From Terriglobia bacterium (GTDB taxonomy: Bacteria; Acidobacteriota; Terriglobia; 20CM-2-55-15): a DNA stretch of 64,000 bases. Shown one piece after another: positions 1,042 to 14,494 of the stretch. Within the stretch, counting starts at the first letter, position 1. The number at the start of each line of letters is the position of its first letter. The DNA is taken from the NCBI GenBank assembly GCA_965218585.1, contig CBDCLE010000025.1:64001-128000 (forward strand), read 5' to 3'. The position numbers and the translations under genes were made by a program. The notes under the pieces were generated by a model that did not search any database, was not told where the DNA came from, and saw only the letters and a program-made list of their open reading frames with translations.

Positions 1042-1660
1042 CTTCAATTTCGCTTCTCGACATAAGCGAATCCGTCCACACCGAGATTTCGCGGTCCGCT
1101 TTCTCGGTAATGACGTTCTCGCCTATCAACTCGCGCACTTCTTCCAGTGCCGGCATCGCCTCCAGGCCGCGTGACATCGCCTCGGGACGAAACACTGTTT
1201 CGTAATACGCAGTAATTTCTTCTTCTGTCGCCTCTGTGAACCTTCGAAATCTCAAATCAAAATAATTGATTCGCTCCAACCTTTTCTGCGCGGCTTCACG
1301 TATCAGTTCCGGAGTAAGGGTAGTCGCTTCAGGAAGACTGGAAACGTACTCATCGATCAACTGTTGGTCCACGCCGAGCCCTGGAAACTGATCGATCTGA
1401 TCCTGAATCAGCAAGTCTTCAATCACTTCCCGGAGCAGATCGACTTCATCTTCCGCTACGACGTCGCCAAACATCCGGGCCACATCCTGGTGTCGCCGAA
1501 CATCACCAAGCGTTACGACGCGTCCATCGACCACCGCCATCATCCGATCAATCACATCTGCCCGGCCGACCTCGCCAAACAGGACCACCATCACCGCGAT
1601 TACAAGCACGAACTCGCAGCAGCGGCGCCAGCTGGACCATCGATGTTTTATCCGCATCAA
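1031..1660 (-). CDS. SurA N-terminal-domain-like periplasmic chaperone
   Basis: Signal peptide then DVIDRMMAVVDGRVVTLGDV, typical of the SurA N-domain; overlaps both neighbours. Confidence 0.7.
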   Translation of the reverse strand: MMRIKHRWSSWRRCCEFVLVIAVMVVLFGEVGRADVIDRMMAVVDGRVVTLGDVRRHQDVARMFGDVVAEDEVDLLREVIEDLLIQDQIDQFPGLGVDQQLIDEYVSSLPEATTLTPELIREAAQKRLERINYFDLRFRRFTEATEEEITAYYETVFRPEAMSRGLEAMPALEEVRELIGENVITEKADREISVWTDSLMSRSEIEVVE

Positions 1661-4341
1661 AACGTATGTCCCAATGTCAGAAATACCTTGTTCGGTGACT
1701 CATTCGGTTGTCGATTCATGTTGAAGCCAAAGTCCAGTCGGATCGGACCCAAGGGCGTCTCGTACCGAATCCCGAAACCTGCGGTATGCGTAAAATCTCC
1801 AAAACTAAAATCGGAGATGTACTGGAAAGTCGTGCCGGTATCGTAGAACGCAGCGCCTCCGAGTCCGGAAATCAAAAGCGGTATCGGGAATCGGTACTCG
1901 GCATTCAGGATCGCGAGTGCGTTTCCGCCGCCTTCGGTTCCCGCCTCATCCAATCCGAAGGACCGCAGTGTCGTCGACCCGCCTGCGAAATAGCGTTCAG
2001 TTATCGGAAGCGATTCGGTTTTCCCGTACGGCTGATTCCAGCCGAACCGCGCCGACGCGGCGATGACGGTTTCCTTTGCTGGGCGGTAAATGCTCGCCTG
2101 GGTAAACAACGATACGTAGTTAACCTGGGACCCTATATACTCGTTTGCCAACTGAAGAGTTCCGGTGAAGTAATTTCCCCGCCTTGGATTGATCGGATCG
2201 TTCCGCGTGTCATGGATATAGGAACCTCCGACACTCGCGATCTGAACCGTCCCCGTCTCGTCAGGGAAGCTACCAGCCCTTGGATTGACGCGAATATCGC
2301 GAAGGTTCACAGTCTGGAAACTTGCGGAAACCAACAGGCTGTCCTGATTGGCAAACTGCTTCAAGGACTGGAACGAGAAGTCGATCCGGTTGGCGTCGAA
2401 GAATTGCTGGCGCGTACGTTCAAAAAACAACGAGGCAAAACCGTCCAACTCCCAATTGAAAAGTCTTGGCTCTCTGAACGTGGTCTGAAACCTCTGTTCG
2501 CGCCGGCTTCCGCGGATTCTGAAGCTCAATGAACGGTCCAATCCCCAGAGGTTGCTATGGGTGAGTTCGACGGTGCCTCGAGGACCCTCCCGATCCTGAA
2601 CGCCCACTCCATAAGTGAGCAGCAAGGGGCCCGCGTCTTCGAGTTGAATCAAAAGGTCGCGTGTACCCGGCTTGTCGTGCTCGAGCGTAACAATGTCAAC
2701 GCGACTGAAAAGCCCCGTAGCATATAAACGCTGTTGAGCCTGGAGAATCGTTTCCGGATCGTATACGTCGCCTTCGGCGAACTGACTGTTACGGTGAATG
2801 ACCTTGTCTCGCGTTCGTGTGTTCCCAGACACGAGTATCTTCCCGATCGTATACGGCTCACCCTCATCGATGTTGTAGGTCAGGTCAACGAGGTCCCCAT
2901 TTACGTTCTGCTCTAGGGTCGACTGCACACGAACATCTGGATATCCACGCCTGTGATAATTCGAAGTGATGGTCCCCCGGGCCCCCTCCGCCTCCCCCGG
3001 AGTGTAAACGTTGCCCGAGGGCAGATTCACAATCCGTTCCAGTTCCGTATCGTCGAACGCCGTGTTTCCTTCAAAGTAGACGCTGCCTATTTCAAGCTGG
3101 TTTCCCTCCTCAATCACCAGGGTCACCGTTATCGCGTTACTCTCCGTTGAGTATTCCGGATCGACGCGAGTTGCGTCAAAACCAGACACTGCATACAGCC
3201 TCTCGATGGCCTCGGCCGCCGTCTCGAGGAGTTCAGGGCTAAAAACACCCCGGCTGAAAAGGCTGTTTCGAGAGATCCCGATGATTCCGTACAAGACGTC
3301 TTCGTCGAAAAACGTGTGTCCCTCAAAACTTACTTCGCGGACAGAGTATCTCTCGCCTGAACTAACCAGATAATTGATCTGAAACGCGTTGTCGCGAGGG
3401 GCCGCGATCAACTCGGCGGCAACCGAAGCTTCGAAAAAACCTTCCTGGCGAACGTATTCCAACAGACCGACACGACCTTCCTCGATCAGGTCCGGGTCGA
3501 CGCTGCCTTCCTCAAAGACCGGAATCAGATCTCGGATAATGGAATCATCCAAGTCGTAACCCCGAACCTGTACTAGCGTAAACGGTCCTGGCTCTATAAC
3601 GACTCTGACGTCTATGGCGTTGTCGGCTCGATCATAGCTTTCGACGAAGTCGACTGCTGTGTTGAGGAAGCCCAGTTCGGCAAACTCAGAACGAATATTC
3701 TCTCTGCCGTCTTCAAGTCTCTCAGTCAGAAACTCGTCGCCCGCTTCCACGCCAAAAGCGTTTCCAAGCTCGGCTTCGGTGAAGGTCTGTTCGCCACCGG
3801 CGAATTCAAGGGTTCGGATCCGCGCCGGCGAGCCGACGCCGACCTCTACGGTGACAGTCACCAGCCGGCTCCCGTCGTCGAACTCATAGGTCGGGCGCAC
3901 TTCGGCCTCGAAATATCCTTCCCTGCCAAACTGTTCACCGACCGCCGCAACGATCTCGTCAAGTTGAGTTCTGGAAAAACGTTCTCCGTAGGGCAGATCC
4001 AGGTAGTTGGATAGCGGCCGGTCGAGCAGAGTGTCGGGACGCAGAATGACTGTCGCCAGAAAATACGGCTCCTCTACGAGAAACGTCAGCGAGGTCGTAC
4101 CGTCCTGACTTTCTGAGGCATCGACCTCGATATGGCCGTAGCGACCCTCGTCAAACAAAGCCTGTATAGAAGCTCGAACCAATTCGGTAGTTAGGATATC
4201 GCCCGATCGGAGGGGGATGACTTCGAGGATTGATTCGGGGGCACCTTCGATAGCGATTGTGCCAACCCTTGTAGAGTCAGGTTGTTGCGCGGCAAGCGCG
4301 AGGGGTAGGAGGACACAGGATATGAGGCAGATTATCCTCAT
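1657..4341 (-). CDS. Omp85-family outer membrane assembly protein (BamA/TamA-like) with multiple POTRA domains
   Basis: POTRA repeats (e.g. ILVSGNTRTRDKVIHR), barrel motifs RYFAGGSTTLRSF and GIRYETPLGPIRLDFG, C-terminal F. Confidence 0.92.
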   Translation of the reverse strand: MRIICLISCVLLPLALAAQQPDSTRVGTIAIEGAPESILEVIPLRSGDILTTELVRASIQALFDEGRYGHIEVDASESQDGTTSLTFLVEEPYFLATVILRPDTLLDRPLSNYLDLPYGERFSRTQLDEIVAAVGEQFGREGYFEAEVRPTYEFDDGSRLVTVTVEVGVGSPARIRTLEFAGGEQTFTEAELGNAFGVEAGDEFLTERLEDGRENIRSEFAELGFLNTAVDFVESYDRADNAIDVRVVIEPGPFTLVQVRGYDLDDSIIRDLIPVFEEGSVDPDLIEEGRVGLLEYVRQEGFFEASVAAELIAAPRDNAFQINYLVSSGERYSVREVSFEGHTFFDEDVLYGIIGISRNSLFSRGVFSPELLETAAEAIERLYAVSGFDATRVDPEYSTESNAITVTLVIEEGNQLEIGSVYFEGNTAFDDTELERIVNLPSGNVYTPGEAEGARGTITSNYHRRGYPDVRVQSTLEQNVNGDLVDLTYNIDEGEPYTIGKILVSGNTRTRDKVIHRNSQFAEGDVYDPETILQAQQRLYATGLFSRVDIVTLEHDKPGTRDLLIQLEDAGPLLLTYGVGVQDREGPRGTVELTHSNLWGLDRSLSFRIRGSRREQRFQTTFREPRLFNWELDGFASLFFERTRQQFFDANRIDFSFQSLKQFANQDSLLVSASFQTVNLRDIRVNPRAGSFPDETGTVQIASVGGSYIHDTRNDPINPRRGNYFTGTLQLANEYIGSQVNYVSLFTQASIYRPAKETVIAASARFGWNQPYGKTESLPITERYFAGGSTTLRSFGLDEAGTEGGGNALAILNAEYRFPIPLLISGLGGAAFYDTGTTFQYISDFSFGDFTHTAGFGIRYETPLGPIRLDFGFNMNRQPNESPNKVFLTLGHTF

Positions 4342-7864: not shown

Positions 7865-8887
7865 ATGAATAGACCACGCGACAGGAGTCGATCCTATGCT
7901 GTTTCGCCCGTGGAACCACATATAGAGGGACAGGAGTTTCTCGGTCCCGCGCCCGAAGGCATCGATGTCAGGTATGCCTGGCAGTTCGATGGCGGACGTG
8001 GCGAGGGTCTTGGTTTTGTCGACCTGGAGTTGGGTTGGACGCTCGACCACGAAGACCTCGTCTCGGACAAGAGACCAGTGCCCCAAGTGCTGTGCGGACA
8101 AATTGTGGACGGCGAGAGAGAACACGGAACATCCGCTCTCGGTGTTGTGGCTTCCACCAGCGAAAGGCCCGGGCACATCGGGATTGCGCCGAACGTCGAA
8201 TCCCTAAACGTCGTCTCCTACTGGCCGGACTGGGATATCGCGGATACGATCTTGATTGCCGTCAAGCACCTGGAGTTCGGGGACGTTCTGCTCTTGGAAG
8301 CGCATGTTCGTGAGGTCGGACACCCACCGGTTGAGGTCTTTCCGAATGTCTTCGATGCCATCCGGCAGGCAACGGCGAAAGGAATCACTGTCGTGGAGCC
8401 CGCAGGCAATGGTGGAATCGATCTAGACGAGTACCGAAAAGAAGGCCGGAGGACTCCCAGTCGCACAGCCGAGAGCGACTCTATGGCGATCCTGGTAGCT
8501 GCCGCGACAGCCGATGCACCTCACGCACCGATTCAGAAAAACATGCCGGATCGTGAGTGGGGCACCAATTTTGGTAGTCGGGTGGACTGCTATGCCTGGG
8601 GTGAGCGAGTGGCGACTTGTACGTCGAACTCCCTAGCTTCGAGGAAGGCGTATACCGACAGTTTCCACGGTACGTCTTCCGCGGCGGCCATCGTTGCCGG
8701 GGCAGCGTTGGTGATTCAGGGGATCGCCGAACATCGACTCGGCCGACGTTTTGGTCCGCTTGAGATTCGGTCGCTACTCAGCGATCCCAGCCTCGCGACG
8801 CCGTCAATGAACGGTCTCGAGATTGATCGAATAGGAGTGATGCCGGACTTAAGAGGAATCGTCGCCCACGAGGGCGTAAAAACTTGA
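7865..8887 (+). CDS. S8 (subtilisin-like) serine peptidase, catalytic domain only
   Basis: Triad motifs FVDLELGW (D), EHGTS (H), HGTSSAAAIVAG (S) and oxyanion AGNG; no signal peptide seen. Confidence 0.9.
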   Translation: MNRPRDRSRSYAVSPVEPHIEGQEFLGPAPEGIDVRYAWQFDGGRGEGLGFVDLELGWTLDHEDLVSDKRPVPQVLCGQIVDGEREHGTSALGVVASTSERPGHIGIAPNVESLNVVSYWPDWDIADTILIAVKHLEFGDVLLLEAHVREVGHPPVEVFPNVFDAIRQATAKGITVVEPAGNGGIDLDEYRKEGRRTPSRTAESDSMAILVAAATADAPHAPIQKNMPDREWGTNFGSRVDCYAWGERVATCTSNSLASRKAYTDSFHGTSSAAAIVAGAALVIQGIAEHRLGRRFGPLEIRSLLSDPSLATPSMNGLEIDRIGVMPDLRGIVAHEGVKT

Positions 8888-8971
8888 TAGTAGAGAACTT
8901 TGTGCAAAAAATGTGACCAGATCGATCCGAACAGGCCGATTCCCACATCATTACCATAAGGAGAAAACCAT

Positions 8972-9325
8972 ATGGCAAAGGGAAAGAATCCAGAATTGAC
9001 TGAACACGAATTTGCGGATGCACGTTTCGAGGACATGAAGGCCCTACTGAAGACCGGTGCACATCCGAAGACGCTCTCGACGCCAGCGGAAAACTTTCTG
9101 AACGGCGCTCTCAAACAGCGGTTCAGGAAAATCATCCGCAAGAGTGGGCAAGGAGCTTGGGTGAGGGACCATGTGATGGTGTCGTTGGGGGCACGCTTGA
9201 TCGGCCACATGGCTGCCGGTAAGCAAGCGTCCGGGCCGATTAGTGTAACGAACCTTAAAGAAGCCGGTAGAGAAGTGTTTGACTTCATACACATTCCCGA
9301 TGGCGATCCTGATTACGGAGATTGA
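8972..9325 (+). CDS. Hypothetical helical protein A (paralog of next gene; histone-fold-like candidate)
   Basis: Strong RBS AAGGAG; 117 aa; ungapped similarity to the next ORF. Confidence 0.75.
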   Translation: MAKGKNPELTEHEFADARFEDMKALLKTGAHPKTLSTPAENFLNGALKQRFRKIIRKSGQGAWVRDHVMVSLGARLIGHMAAGKQASGPISVTNLKEAGREVFDFIHIPDGDPDYGD

Positions 9326-9327
9326 CG

Positions 9328-9744
9328 ATGATGAAAATAACTAAGCAAACTCCGATCTATTCGATCCGACCAAGAGAGGAATCCGTACGCGAGAGACTTC
9401 GAACAGAAGATCCCGATGTTTTCGTCGAGGATTGCGTGAATCGTTGTATTTCATTCATGCGTAGCGGAGTCGGTGAGATGAGTCTCAACGGCGAGGCCGT
9501 CCTGTATCTCGAAGACCACTTCAGGCCACGTTTTCGAAAAGCTTTCGAAAACGGCGGCGGTGCCCGATGGGACAAAGACTCCCGTTTTGTGTTTCACTGC
9601 TCCCGCATTCTGGGTCGTGTGGCTGCCCGCTTTGCCTCGGCTCGAGGTTCATCCACCGTCACAAAACAGGATATCGAGCAAGCTCGAGAGAAAGTCGTTG
9701 CCGAGAAGAGTCCAGGTCCCGGATCCTGGTGTGCGCCGTTCTAA
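9328..9744 (+). CDS. Hypothetical helical protein B (histone-fold-like C-terminal motif, GPGSWCAPF tail)
   Basis: GGAG at 9317-9320 precedes ATG 9328/9331; AARFASARGSSTVTKQDIEQA resembles histone alpha2-L2-alpha3. Confidence 0.75.
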   Translation: MMKITKQTPIYSIRPREESVRERLRTEDPDVFVEDCVNRCISFMRSGVGEMSLNGEAVLYLEDHFRPRFRKAFENGGGARWDKDSRFVFHCSRILGRVAARFASARGSSTVTKQDIEQAREKVVAEKSPGPGSWCAPF

Positions 9745-11272
9745 GGATTTCGAAATAAAGGAAACGTACTGATCCGTTTCTCGCCGTAGGCATTGCCATG
9801 GCCATTTCTCTCTGGGCGAGAGCGTGTCTTGCGCTTCTTAAAGTCGTTGGGGGAATCGCCGGGTTCTTCCTCGGCCAGACGCCCTTCACAGACACGAGTC
9901 CCGTCCCCACCATCCACCTGATCAATCTGGGTGTTTTTGGCGCGGCTGCGGCTCTGTTGATTTTCGTTGGGCCCAGAGATCGCAGAGCACAGCATCTGGG
10001 TACTGTCTTTCTTCTCTCCGCGTCCGCTTTTTCCGACGCGTCACTCATCCAACTTGGCTTTAGTGTTCCTGCATCTGTCGCGCCGGCTCTTACTTCGTTG
10101 GTGAATCTACAACCCTATGCGTTCTCACCATATTTTTTCTGGCTTTTTGTCCGCGATTTTCCAAGAGTGTCCTCGCTCAGCTGGGCGACTCAAGTACTTC
10201 GATCTGATATTCGCCTGTCTCTTGTTGCAGGCACTGCGCTGTTTCTGGCGAATGCATTGCTCCTGTTTCGATCGTTGTTACCGGACCTCGTTCTCACTAT
10301 ATTTCTCGCGTTCGATGGCACTGTATCGACGAGTCTCTACTGGGGAATTCTGTACGCACTGATTCTTGCAGCATTCCCTCTTGCGTTGTGGAAATGCAGG
10401 ACCGCACAAGGCGACGAACGATTCCGAGCCCAGCTCTTTATTGCAGGCTTTGCAATCGGAACCTGCCCCATCGTGATTGCGGTTCTTGTCGTGAGCCTGT
10501 TTTCTTCCCTGGAAGTGTTTCTGAATTCGACAAGCACATTAGGTGTTCCCATCTATGCGTTTCTGTTGTCCGTTCCCTTCACAACCGCTTATTCCGTTCT
10601 GGTCAATGAGGTTCTCGAAGTCAAGCTTATCGTTCGGAAGGCGCTCCGGTATGCTCTTGCCCGATACACCGTCATAGCGTTGACCGTGCTGCCTTTCGGA
10701 CTGCTCGTTTATCAGCTGCGCGACCGGACGATCGCACAGCTCTTTTCAGGTCCCCTTCCGCTCGGACTCATTGCAGCCACCGGACTCGGGCTGACGGCAT
10801 TGGCCGTACGTGAAAAAGTCTTGAAGTCTATCGACAGGCATTTTTTCAGGGAGGCTTACGATTCACCCCGGATACTCTCCCAATTCATGCAGAACTGGCA
10901 GTCCGCATCGAACGTTGAAGAATACAGTGCCGGATTCCTTGAGACTGCTGACAACCTGAACCTTGAATCTCTCGCGATACTGACGCTGGATCGCGCTAGG
11001 GGTGAGTTTCGATCCGCCCACGACGAGGTTCGCCCGCTTCCGGTCGGTTCATCCCTGTCCAGGTTTCTCCAGGGGAGCACCGATCCGGTAGACATCGACC
11101 TCAGCGATCCCGATTCGCCACTCCCTCCCTGACAACGGACGATCGCGACTGGCTTGCCCGTATTGGAGCGAATCTGCTCGTGCCACTGATCGGAACAGAT
11201 GGTTCCCTTTTGGGTCTTCTGAACCGCCCGGGTTTTCCGGAGACTCCATTTCTTGAGAGGATGGGAGTCATC

Positions 11273-12591
<1,319 letters not shown>

Positions 12592-13836
12592 TGAAGACAA
12601 TTGCGGCTTCGGAAGCGTTAATGATCGAAAACCGGTTTGTGCGACCTGTTTCTGCTGGAGAGGCCACGTCTCACGGGTTTGGCGCCGCAGACTCGGTTGA
12701 AGAAATGCCCGTCGGCGAGGTTGCCTTCGAATGCAGGCGCTGTGGCACTTTGCAGTCGGAACCAGCGTCTACCTGCGAATGCGGCGGCACATTCGAGCCC
12801 GCCTCTGTACCCAAGGTTATTCCGGACAAGTTCGAGTTCGAACGAAGACTCGGGTCCGGCGGCATGGGAGTTGTTTACAGCGCTATCGATCTGGCGCTTG
12901 GACGGCGTGTCGCCGTCAAGACGCTACCAAGAACTTCGCCTGAGGGTGCGCTGCTGCTTCGAAATGAGGGTCTTAAAGTGGCTGCACTCGAGCACCCAAA
13001 TCTGGCCACGATATTTATGGTGGAGACATGGTTCGGCACCCCAATGCTGATCTTTGAGTTTCTGGCCGGTGGCAGTCTTTTCGACAAGCTGAAGCTCGGC
13101 AATCGCTCGATAATGGAAACGATCCGCTTGGGAATCGTCCTTGCGGACGCATTGGAACGTGTACACGCTTCGAACATGCTGCATCGGGACATCAAGCCGG
13201 GCAACATCGGATACACGGGGGATGGTATTCCGAAGCTCTTGGATTTTGGATTAGCCCAAATCCTTGAAGACCGGCGCCGGAAAGGTTTGGTCCGTTCAGT
13301 TCAGCTAGGCGATCCAGAAGCGGCCGCGAAATCGACTCTGTCTACCCAGTCGATTTCGGTGACCCTTTCCAGTGCGCCATCCTTCCGCCTGGTTGGAACT
13401 CCCGCCTATTTCTCTCCGGAAACGCTCAAGAAAAAGGCCTCCGATCACGCATCACGTGACCTGTGGGCGCTCAACATAGTGCTCTATGAGGCGTTGACGG
13501 GCAAGAATCCGGTGAGAGGTGCCACCCTGCTCGAAACATTTGAGGTGATTTCGAAAGCGAGTATTCCCGACATCCGACAATTTCTTCCGGATTGTCCCAC
13601 AAGCCTCGCGATGTTCTTCACGGAGACGTTGGCCAAGGATACGCGCCAGCGTCCTTCCAGTGCAACGGCATTGCGCGAGCGCCTGGAACAACTCGAGAAA
13701 ACCCTGCCTGAGAACGGTTTGGCTGCCAGTCAGACCTGAGGGACGTTAGTGTGGCACTAATTGTGGGACAAACGGTCGATGCTGCATCGGATCATCTGCC
13801 TAACCAACATCCTAGTAATACGTGTAGTAATGCGAG

Positions 13837-14041: not shown

Positions 14042-14494
14042 ATGGAATTTCGACTCGCACTATTTGTAGCGCTTGTCTTCGTGGTTCTCGTTTGGAACAC
14101 AGCCCTACTCTGGTTCATCCATCGGGCAGTGTCCCGATCGGTGGATCGAGCTGCGCGTTATCAGCACTATTCCTCTCAGTTGATCGTAGGACTTCGAGGC
14201 GCACTAGAAAAGGCCGAGGTCGCTTCGGGTAGAGCCACCGAATGGTCGGGACAACTCCGGGAGAGAGTGGCCGAAGCCAGTGGAAACGTAGACAGGATTG
14301 AAAACCTGCTCGGCTACGGCCTCGCAAAGATAGACTTCAACGTAGATCGCGTCTCGAGGGAAATCAACGATGGGGCGGATCGCATAAAAGCTGCGGTCTC
14401 CGAGCCGTTATTCCGAACGGGAACCGTCGTGCACGGGATCAAAGCTCTTCTCGACCTTCTTGCTTTGGGCAGGAAGGATCACCCCCGCAGCTAG
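14042..14494 (+). CDS. Hypothetical membrane-anchored coiled-coil protein
   Basis: N-terminal TM helix followed by amphipathic helices; fills the gap between the tRNA and galE. Confidence 0.6.
   Translation: MEFRLALFVALVFVVLVWNTALLWFIHRAVSRSVDRAARYQHYSSQLIVGLRGALEKAEVASGRATEWSGQLRERVAEASGNVDRIENLLGYGLAKIDFNVDRVSREINDGADRIKAAVSEPLFRTGTVVHGIKALLDLLALGRKDHPRS

Follow-up and report, generated by a model that had tools for sequence, protein, structure and literature searches.

What are the two small adjacent genes that fill positions 8972-9744 of this stretch of DNA, and what would a bacterium use their products for? The stretch, called the window below, comprises 64,000 nucleotides of contig CBDCLE010000025.1 from a Terriglobia bacterium (Acidobacteriota), and the genes are two same-strand open reading frames (ORFs) referred to as A and B. 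In an original prediction, made from the letters alone, they were described as tandem paralogs with a histone-fold-like signature, possibly a divergent histone that forms heterodimers. The analysis presented here assigns them to a family of small proteins whose genes stand in tight and specific linkage with those of a single orthologous group of multi-pass membrane Ser/Thr kinases. This conserved kinase linkage, missed by the original prediction, is the main context of the two genes.

Genes A and B and the family they represent

Gene A (8972..9325, forward strand) encodes a protein of 117 amino acids that contains no cysteine at all and hence lacks a C-terminal aromatic-Cys motif. Gene B (9328..9744, forward strand) encodes 138 amino acids from the ATG at 9328 and possesses both a cysteine in the first predicted helix (alpha1) and a C-terminal G-x-W-C motif. 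Three starts are available for B, namely TTG 9322 (140 amino acids), ATG 9328 (138 amino acids) and ATG 9331 (137 amino acids); a public source calls the gene from ATG 9331 (protein P0047, 137 amino acids), and the closest homologs of B start about 19 residues further in. Shine-Dalgarno-like elements on the forward strand have been located 8 nucleotides 5' of the ATG of A (AGGAG, 8959-8963) and 7 nucleotides 5' of ATG 9328 of B (GGAG, 9317-9320). Since the stop codon of A (9323-9325) ends 2 nucleotides ahead of ATG 9328, the two genes look translationally coupled. Both products are mildly basic, with isoelectric points (pI) of 9.0 for A and 9.3 for B.

The ungapped alignment of A residues 14-82 with B residues 34-102, put forward in the original prediction, was reproduced exactly, with 17 identities in 69 positions and the quoted pattern G..L..A..L..RFRK..G..W..D..V..R..G..AA; the quoted tails, ...AARFASARGSSTVTKQDIEQAREKV in B and ...SGPISVTNLKEAGREV in A, are likewise present in the sequence. 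For shuffled B (n = 300) the best 69-residue diagonal had a mean of 10.9 identities (standard deviation 1.1), and 17 identities were reached once in the 300. BLASTP of A against B gave an E value of 0.001 (27% identity, 74 columns). A profile of 42 distant members, built without A, B and the three close homologs of B, scored B with 123.8 bits and A with 35.5 bits, these 42 relatives having first been gathered with a profile that included A and B. Because the alignment exceeds the shuffles and both BLASTP and the profile of distant members recover the relationship, A and B should be regarded as real paralogs, as had been claimed. In a maximum likelihood tree of 28 members, A clusters with P0011, a metagenomic protein likewise without the C-terminal Cys motif (support 96/92), and B with the homolog P0003; the clade of A, which does not include B, is well supported (95/93). 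The short sequences, long branches and midpoint root of this tree call for a cautious reading; as judged from sequence, A and B appear anciently diverged and not recent duplicates.

A word-based search of 5.8 billion clusters retrieved three homologs for B (65-89% identity, 118-119 amino acids) and only the query itself for A. A HMMER profile search of 1.84 billion representatives then delivered 44 proteins at E<=1e-3, three of them at E<=1e-10. The length of these 44 is mostly 100-135 amino acids, and the family as a whole ranges from 92 to 247. The ten family clusters that were looked up carry 'hypothetical protein' as their only name, and no Pfam, NCBIfam or PADLOC defence model has been found for A or B. 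A Pfam scan of 47 aligned members produced only scattered sub-threshold matches among the 25 of 31 families listed. Related-locus searches with B in genome contigs and with alignment A1 in metagenome contigs were both empty.

The conserved positions of the family, numbered as in B, are distributed over the whole domain. In alpha1, Cys occupies column 40 in 28 of 45 members, and in the first loop a G-x-G motif is formed by columns 45 (Gly 29/44) and 47 (Gly 40/44). These are followed by Ala at 57 (40/47), Trp at 81 (45/47), Gly at 96 (47/47), Arg at 97 (29/47) and Ala at 99 (46/47); the second loop contains Ile or Val at 111 in all 47 members, and Ala 119 is equally invariant. The tail carries a P-x2-G motif (columns 129 and 132; Pro 33/42, Gly 37/42), an aromatic residue at 134 (42/43) and a cysteine at 135, found in 44 of the 44 members whose tail is present. 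By pattern count, an aromatic-Cys pair lies inside the last 14 residues of 39 of the 47 members. Five columns of the alignment, at B positions 62, 66, 93, 97 and 106, have Lys or Arg in at least 50% of members, and for 20 genome-encoded family proteins the pI extends from 4.2 to 10.5.

Linkage to a membrane Ser/Thr kinase

Within the taxonomic order of the source genome (designated G000), 35 genomes were searched with the family profile and three gave matches: G000 itself, G027 and, weakly, G028. The match in G028 (E 0.0019) was set aside as probably spurious: the 141-amino-acid ORF concerned (1345..1770, reverse strand) overlaps an opposite-strand ORF of 284 amino acids, and the 3.2-kb locus has no kinase-like ORF. 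In G027 the genes are arranged in the order subtilisin-like (S8) peptidase (850 amino acids), family gene (247 amino acids) and kinase (861 amino acids). The family protein of G027 (locus L008, 11283-12026) bears an extra N-terminal region of about 120 amino acids without a Pfam match, and its family domain is C-terminal.

Across the phylum, an even sample of 401 genomes was searched with a family cut-off of E<=1e-3. The family was identified in 12 of them, G000 included, and in nine of the other eleven (G417, G425, G359, G302, G399, G168, G127, G300 and, truncated by the end of its contig, G049) the membrane kinase has an intact homolog no more than 200 bp away. The kinase is on the same strand as the family gene in eight of these nine, the nearest copy in G127 being divergent. 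In G341 (L027, 7469-8873) a pair of family genes stands beside a 145-amino-acid remnant that corresponds to the kinase C-terminal lobe only, apparently a decayed kinase.

The linkage was also counted starting from the kinase, which avoids defining the groups by the feature counted. The kinase membrane domain has matches at E<=1e-10 in 61 of the 401 genomes, a tally that includes G186, flagged as unpublished, and 11 genomes stand out at E<=1e-33. A family gene is adjacent to the kinase, no more than 200 bp from it, in ten of these eleven, the copy in G055 having been detected only by a local search (E about 1e-6). At 18 loci of more distant kinase paralogs no family gene was detected at E<=1 over a distance of 13.5-15.5 kb. 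A related-locus search with the kinase membrane domain in genome contigs found none.

Two family genes per locus occur in five of 14 family-bearing genomes (G000, G341, G302, G359 and G127). The pairs of G341, G302 and G359 each consist of one copy without the final aromatic-Cys motif and one with it, and their two copy types form sister groups (98/95) apart from the lineages of A and B. For this reason, the pairing of a copy that bears the Cys with one that lacks it probably arose more than once. A metagenomic protein, P0012 (222 amino acids), has two complete family domains fused, each ending in G-R-W-C-P-P. The recurrence of pairs is suggestive of paired action.

In the window itself the kinase gene is split. 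Its N-terminal multi-pass membrane part (9798..11132, forward strand) has no Pfam match and can be aligned, at 35% identity in 445 columns, with the segment 16-455 of the G027 kinase. The C-terminal part (12531..13739, forward strand) comprises a linker, a Cys motif and a Hanks-type domain (Pfam Pkinase, E 6.6e-35); homology to the orthologous kinase resumes at 12531 in tblastn, and the ORF 12591..13739 is 46% identical to residues 545-858 of the G027 protein. Just before the kinase domain, in the segment 12591-12900, an arrangement Cys-x2-Cys ... Cys-x-Cys is found, a possible zinc ribbon, which is kept in the G027 ortholog. The two parts are separated by an IS3-family insertion sequence (IS) at approximately 11220..12530 (forward strand), recognised by the Pfam models HTH_Tnp_1, HTH_21 and rve, with orfA and orfB listed at 11180..11596 and 11590..12594 and a terminal inverted repeat at 11227-11257 and 12492-12522.

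At least 16 further copies of this element, at 99-100% identity and with the same ends, are present in the genome, which points to a recent burst of transposition. As the copies are near-identical, the insertion must be recent; that A and B are intact says little on whether they function independently of the kinase. The kinase frame additionally ends at a premature stop after a 1-nucleotide frameshift near 11115-11130, in the C-rich run CTCCCTCCCTG, about 90 nucleotides before the IS border; homology carries on in another frame over 11045-11221. This frameshift could be an error of the assembly; if it is not, it represents a second inactivating lesion, and the kinase is doubly disrupted here. 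With the kinase inactivated by the frameshift and the recent insertion, the module in this genome is probably not working as a whole.

The gene order is opened by an S8 peptidase gene (7865..8887, forward strand; 340 amino acids; Pfam Peptidase_S8, E 2.9e-10). The product is a minimal core with no evident signal peptide or membrane segment and is 34% identical to the core (residues 195-529) of the G027 peptidase. The latter (L008, 8678-11230; 850 amino acids) has a hydrophobic N-terminal stretch and a C-terminal extension of 320 amino acids without a Pfam match. An S8 homolog is found at one of the 12 other family loci, that of G027, and at none of 20 further kinase loci; G000 and G027, the only two genomes with S8 at the locus, belong to the same family of genomes. 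The ORF just 3' of the kinase (14042-14491, 150 amino acids) has no Pfam match. The remaining neighbours are ordinary chromosomal genes, encoding a BamA-like Omp85 protein, a SurA-like chaperone, an ABC transporter ATPase with a FecCD permease, a UDP-glucose dehydrogenase, an epimerase, and a tryptophan synthase alpha chain with a PALP-family protein, probably the beta chain. The GC content is even across the window (0.50-0.585), where no sign of a mobile island other than the IS copy was found.

Predicted fold and its relation to histones and AAA+ lids

AlphaFold2 predicts the same topology for A and B, in which helix, strand and helix are followed by a second helix, strand and helix, giving two helix-strand-helix (HSH) units. 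The model of A was built from 43 alignment rows and reached a predicted local distance difference test (pLDDT) of 89.1 and a predicted template-modelling score (pTM) of 0.79, with helices at residues 11-30, 37-58, 60-84 and 92-106 and bridge residues at 35 and 90. The model of B, from 5 rows, reached a pLDDT of 76.3 and a pTM of 0.67, with helices at 29-48, 55-74, 79-105 and 113-126 and bridge residues at 52-53 and 110-111. DSSP, run on the single-chain models, assigns bridge residues to the two loops of either chain. As only one chain is present in a monomer run, the bridge is read as an intrachain pairing of the first loop (L1) with the second (L2), and the two central helices would therefore form a hairpin and not one long helix.

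The hinge that joins the two units is consistent with this reading. Among the 47 aligned members it measures 5-26 residues (median 9), tolerates insertions and deletions, and has a G/P/N/D/S content of 0.39 versus 0.27 overall; such variation would be incompatible with an uninterrupted alpha2 helix of the histone kind. The predicted topology is thus that of a closed single chain of two HSH units with an intrachain beta-bridge. A comparison of the two HSH halves by hhalign gave no signal of an internal repeat (probability 2.3%). The prediction of an A+B complex scored 0.26 and 0.29, below the mark of 0.32 and without controls, and counts as evidence neither way.

Profiles of the family, built from two alignments (A2 and A3), were run against 177,635 distinct PDB sequences. 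In both cases the first match was 1f1e_A, the doublet histone HMk of Methanopyrus kandleri (E 3.2e-4 with A2, 5.2e-5 with A3). With A3 it was followed by histone H2B (8grq_D, 9.1e-4), archaeal histone A (0.028) and an MCM3 lid over the whole domain (0.03); further matches at E<1 included HMfA (0.15), FtsH lids and numerous entries for H2B and HMf. A phmmer search with B alone gave 0 matches in the PDB sequences, and that of A alone nothing meaningful (Mediator Med9 0.76, THR2 1.1). In the profile alignment the first HSH unit corresponds to HMk residues 14-35 (alpha1, L1 and the start of alpha2 of the first fold) and the second to residues 108-144 (the end of alpha2, L2 and alpha3 of the second fold). 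Such a mapping would be expected if one A or B chain represented half a histone dimer, the L1 of one partner pairing with the L2 of the other.

Structural searches lead to the same chain. In Foldseek, 1f1e ranked first for the model of B (probability 1.00, template-modelling score 0.49), with AAA+ lids next. VIA, a structural aligner independent of Foldseek that was run over 48,161 chains, also placed 1f1e_A first for B (Z 8.8, root-mean-square deviation 3.1, 96 residues aligned); the following rows, which are 2.2 Z units lower (<=6.6), contain AAA+ lids, the SOS histone domain and a fused H2A-H2B. For A, 1f1e_A was again first (Z 6.2), tied with lids at 5.7-5.8. The weight of the histone likeness lies in the choice of the same chain by two independent methods, sequence profile and structure. 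The histone-like signature that had been claimed for the segment alpha2-L2-alpha3 is in this sense borne out, 1f1e being the best match in the profile search and in both structural searches. The interpretation as a histone fold stands in part: the related signature is there, and the AlphaFold and Foldseek check that had been proposed does return a histone as top match, but the models show a closed two-HSH bundle in place of the canonical three-helix fold with one long alpha2.

Recognition by domain models is weak for either relative. A has no Pfam match, and B matches no histone model at E<=1. At E<=0.01 the model PF00808 (CBFD_NFYB_HMF) is silent throughout the genome, and it is positive in three archaeal control genomes, and PF00808 and PF00125 are absent among the 25 of 31 Pfam families listed for the 47 members. 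The histone-fold-related Bromo_TP matches one member below threshold (0.029). Sub-threshold lid matches consist of Cdc6_lid for B (0.21), AAA_lid_2 for 2 of the 47 members (best 0.15) and, in one member each, AAA_lid_3 (0.035), the LonB lid (0.081) and Phage-MuB_C (0.0019). The nearest ESM Atlas clusters of B carry histone-fold Pfam families at 0.83-0.88, below the 0.9 line and thus a lead only, and for A there was no usable match. Lacking both a Pfam histone match and, in the models, a single long alpha2, the family does not appear to belong to the canonical histone fold. It shares the predicted topology of AAA+ lids without the ATPase core and without recognition by Pfam lid models.

The family consequently sits between lids and histones, with a lid-like closed topology and long hinge, and with its best sequence matches among histones. 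With HMk it has in common the HSH units and the L1-L2 beta-bridge of the models, as well as the sequence pattern of the second half of alpha2, L2 and alpha3 (G-R/K-x-A-A ... G ... I/V ... D ... A). HMk, on the other hand, possesses two complete three-helix folds in 154 amino acids, whereas A and B have about 100 structured residues, made up of an alpha1-L1-alpha2 half, a variable hinge and an alpha2-L2-alpha3 half; HMk is an archaeal DNA-binding protein, whereas the family is bacterial, kinase-linked, variable in charge and provided with an invariant C-terminal cysteine. The nearest match may be a histone because the chain resembles half of each partner in a histone dimer. The AAA+ lids of FtsH, proteasomal Rpt, RuvBL, MCM and Lon (Z 5-6.6) have the same predicted topology, a small two-HSH bundle with one beta-bridge, but are part of an ATPase, whereas the family is free-standing, has no P-loop ATPase domain and has longer helices (about 100 versus about 75 aligned residues). 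A search for longer fused relatives of the family found none, which is weak evidence.

A comparable stand-alone domain is the N-terminal domain of DNA polymerase epsilon subunit B (PDB 2v6z), aligned with Z 6.3 for B and 5.0 for A. It is reportedly a stand-alone AAA+-lid-like HSH domain engaged in protein-protein contacts. In contrast to A and B, it comes from eukaryotes, where it belongs to a larger subunit of the replication machinery, and no sequence relation to A and B was detected here. The 50 rows that each wide structural search lists contain neither DUF1931 nor other single-chain histone-like structures of that sort.

According to passages of Alva et al. 2007 (PMC1847821), the histone fold derived from the AAA+ C-domain through a three-dimensional domain swap after shortening of the hinge, and the face of the HSH beta-bridge is the ligand site both in histones, for DNA, and in Clp N-domains, for ClpS. 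The census of prokaryotic histones by Schwab et al. 2024 (PMC11390915) started, in the passages concerned, from InterPro IPR009072 and distinguished 17 categories, among them DUF1931 and operon-encoded RdgC/IHF histones, some without DNA-binding residues. Those proteins, as described there, are small and in some cases encoded in conserved multi-gene operons, as is the family of A and B; the census is based on IPR009072, whereas this family has no Pfam histone match. The same passages contain no kinase-linked category, and polynucleotide kinase is the only kinase mentioned in them, although the supplementary tables might list relatives. DUF1931 is absent from the 25 of 31 Pfam families and the 50 structural rows listed here, and may still be among those not listed.

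Proposed role and rival explanations

The best explanation, to which we give a little more than an even chance, is that the family acts as a cytoplasmic partner of the membrane Hanks-type Ser/Thr kinase, either a regulatory subunit or an adaptor, built as a lid-like or half-histone-like closed chain. We infer, as follows, a physical contact with the kinase, a role for the cysteine and any pairing of A with B. The family protein would most likely dock on the cytoplasmic part of the kinase through the L1/L2 beta-bridge face, where the conserved G-x-G loop, G96/R97/A99 and I111 are located. A thiol, metal or covalent switch may be provided by the invariant C-terminal aromatic-Cys, which in many members is accompanied by the alpha1 Cys, and Cys-less copies such as A would be non-switching paralogous partners.

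Several observations weigh against this explanation. One clear exception to the linkage is G210 (L036, 8992-12473), where a Cys-less family ORF of 221 amino acids stands beside a 927-amino-acid CarboxypepD_reg protein and no kinase, and in G319 a closely related kinase has no family gene within 15.5 kb. The linkage counts overstate independence, because the linked genomes are related, four coming from family f53 and two from f83. On the structural side, the Foldseek E value for 1f1e is only 0.094, Z scores of 6-9 are reachable by chance for helical bundles according to the aligner's own note, the model of B depends on a 5-row alignment, and a closed AlphaFold2 monomer does not exclude a domain-swapped dimer in reality. 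Furthermore, no column of the family alignment has Ser/Thr at 50% or more.

The last of these points also bears on another proposal, in which the family is the dedicated substrate or output of the kinase, phosphorylated by it and then acting downstream, possibly on DNA, as a response-regulator analogue for a Hanks kinase. The gene linkage is equally tight for this proposal, and in histones and Clp N-domains the HSH beta-bridges serve for binding to DNA phosphates or to proteins, as stated in passages of Alva et al. (PMC1847821). A simple substrate role is nevertheless less likely, because there is no conserved Ser/Thr column, and the most conserved side chains are Gly, Ala, Trp and Cys, typical of a structural core with a Cys switch and not of a phosphosite; the proposal as a whole is considered rather unlikely. 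A functional bond of A and B with the S8 peptidase, as its substrate, inhibitor or chaperone and with the kinase incidental, would account for the order S8, family gene(s), kinase common to G000 and G027, and the conserved C-terminal tail could be a processing site. Such a bond seems very improbable, given that S8 accompanies the family at a single other locus and none of the further kinase loci, and that the two genomes sharing this order come from one family.

The view closest to the original prediction is that A and B are true divergent histone-fold proteins, forming a handshake A/B heterodimer or domain-swapped dimers that bind DNA as nucleoid or transcription factors. It is in keeping with a histone as best match in sequence and structure, with the ESM Atlas lead for B, with the recurrence of tandem pairs and a fused doublet, and with the mildly basic character of A and B. 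It is at odds with the splitting of the central 'alpha2' by an indel-tolerant hinge of 5-26 residues and the intramolecular closure of both models, with the silence of PF00808 in the genome and the absence of histone models, save the sub-threshold Bromo_TP, among the Pfam families listed, and with the occurrence of the genes in multi-gene kinase cassettes and not as single-gene units. A histone-like role in DNA packaging or DNA binding is unlikely for the family in general, because its pI spans 4.2-10.5 and its genes lie in kinase cassettes, and true histone-fold membership is judged improbable. Conversely, the likeness to histones and lids might be convergent, an unrelated helical domain having arrived at a common four-helix arrangement. 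Z scores below the aligner's caution level for helical bundles, the lack of a significant repeat between the halves and the purely sub-threshold matches of Pfam lid and histone models agree with this. Yet profile and structure both put 1f1e first, among 177,635 sequences and 48,161 chains, and dozens of H2B, HMf and MCM/FtsH lid sequences stand in the profile list at E<1, so that convergence is accorded the least credence of the alternatives.

A further idea goes beyond the role of kinase partner: the family could be a living representative of the 'closed' ancestor-like state postulated for histones (Alva et al. 2007), a free-standing chain of two HSH units with a long hinge, recruited by bacteria as a dedicated cytoplasmic subunit of the polytopic Hanks-type kinases and switched by its C-terminal cysteine. 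This is offered as a speculation and is considered rather unlikely. If it were true, the recurrent duplication into Cys-bearing and Cys-less copies, in A/B and independently in G341, G302 and G359, together with the natural fusion, would point to paired action.

For annotation, the label 'histone' is unsuited to these genes; the signature is real, but predicted topology, charge range and gene context oppose DNA packaging. What is new is a free-standing family in the HSH superfamily of histones and AAA+ lids with a new functional context, and the literature search found no paper linking the histone fold with bacterial Ser/Thr kinases. To our knowledge, cognate partners are known for few bacterial Hanks kinases, and the family provides a candidate dedicated partner for widespread but unstudied multi-pass membrane Ser/Thr kinases. 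The HSH superfamily, which connects AAA+ lids with histones, also gains a bacterial family that had no annotation. Being free-standing and having histones as its nearest sequence relatives, this family would make the domain-swap model of histone origin directly testable.

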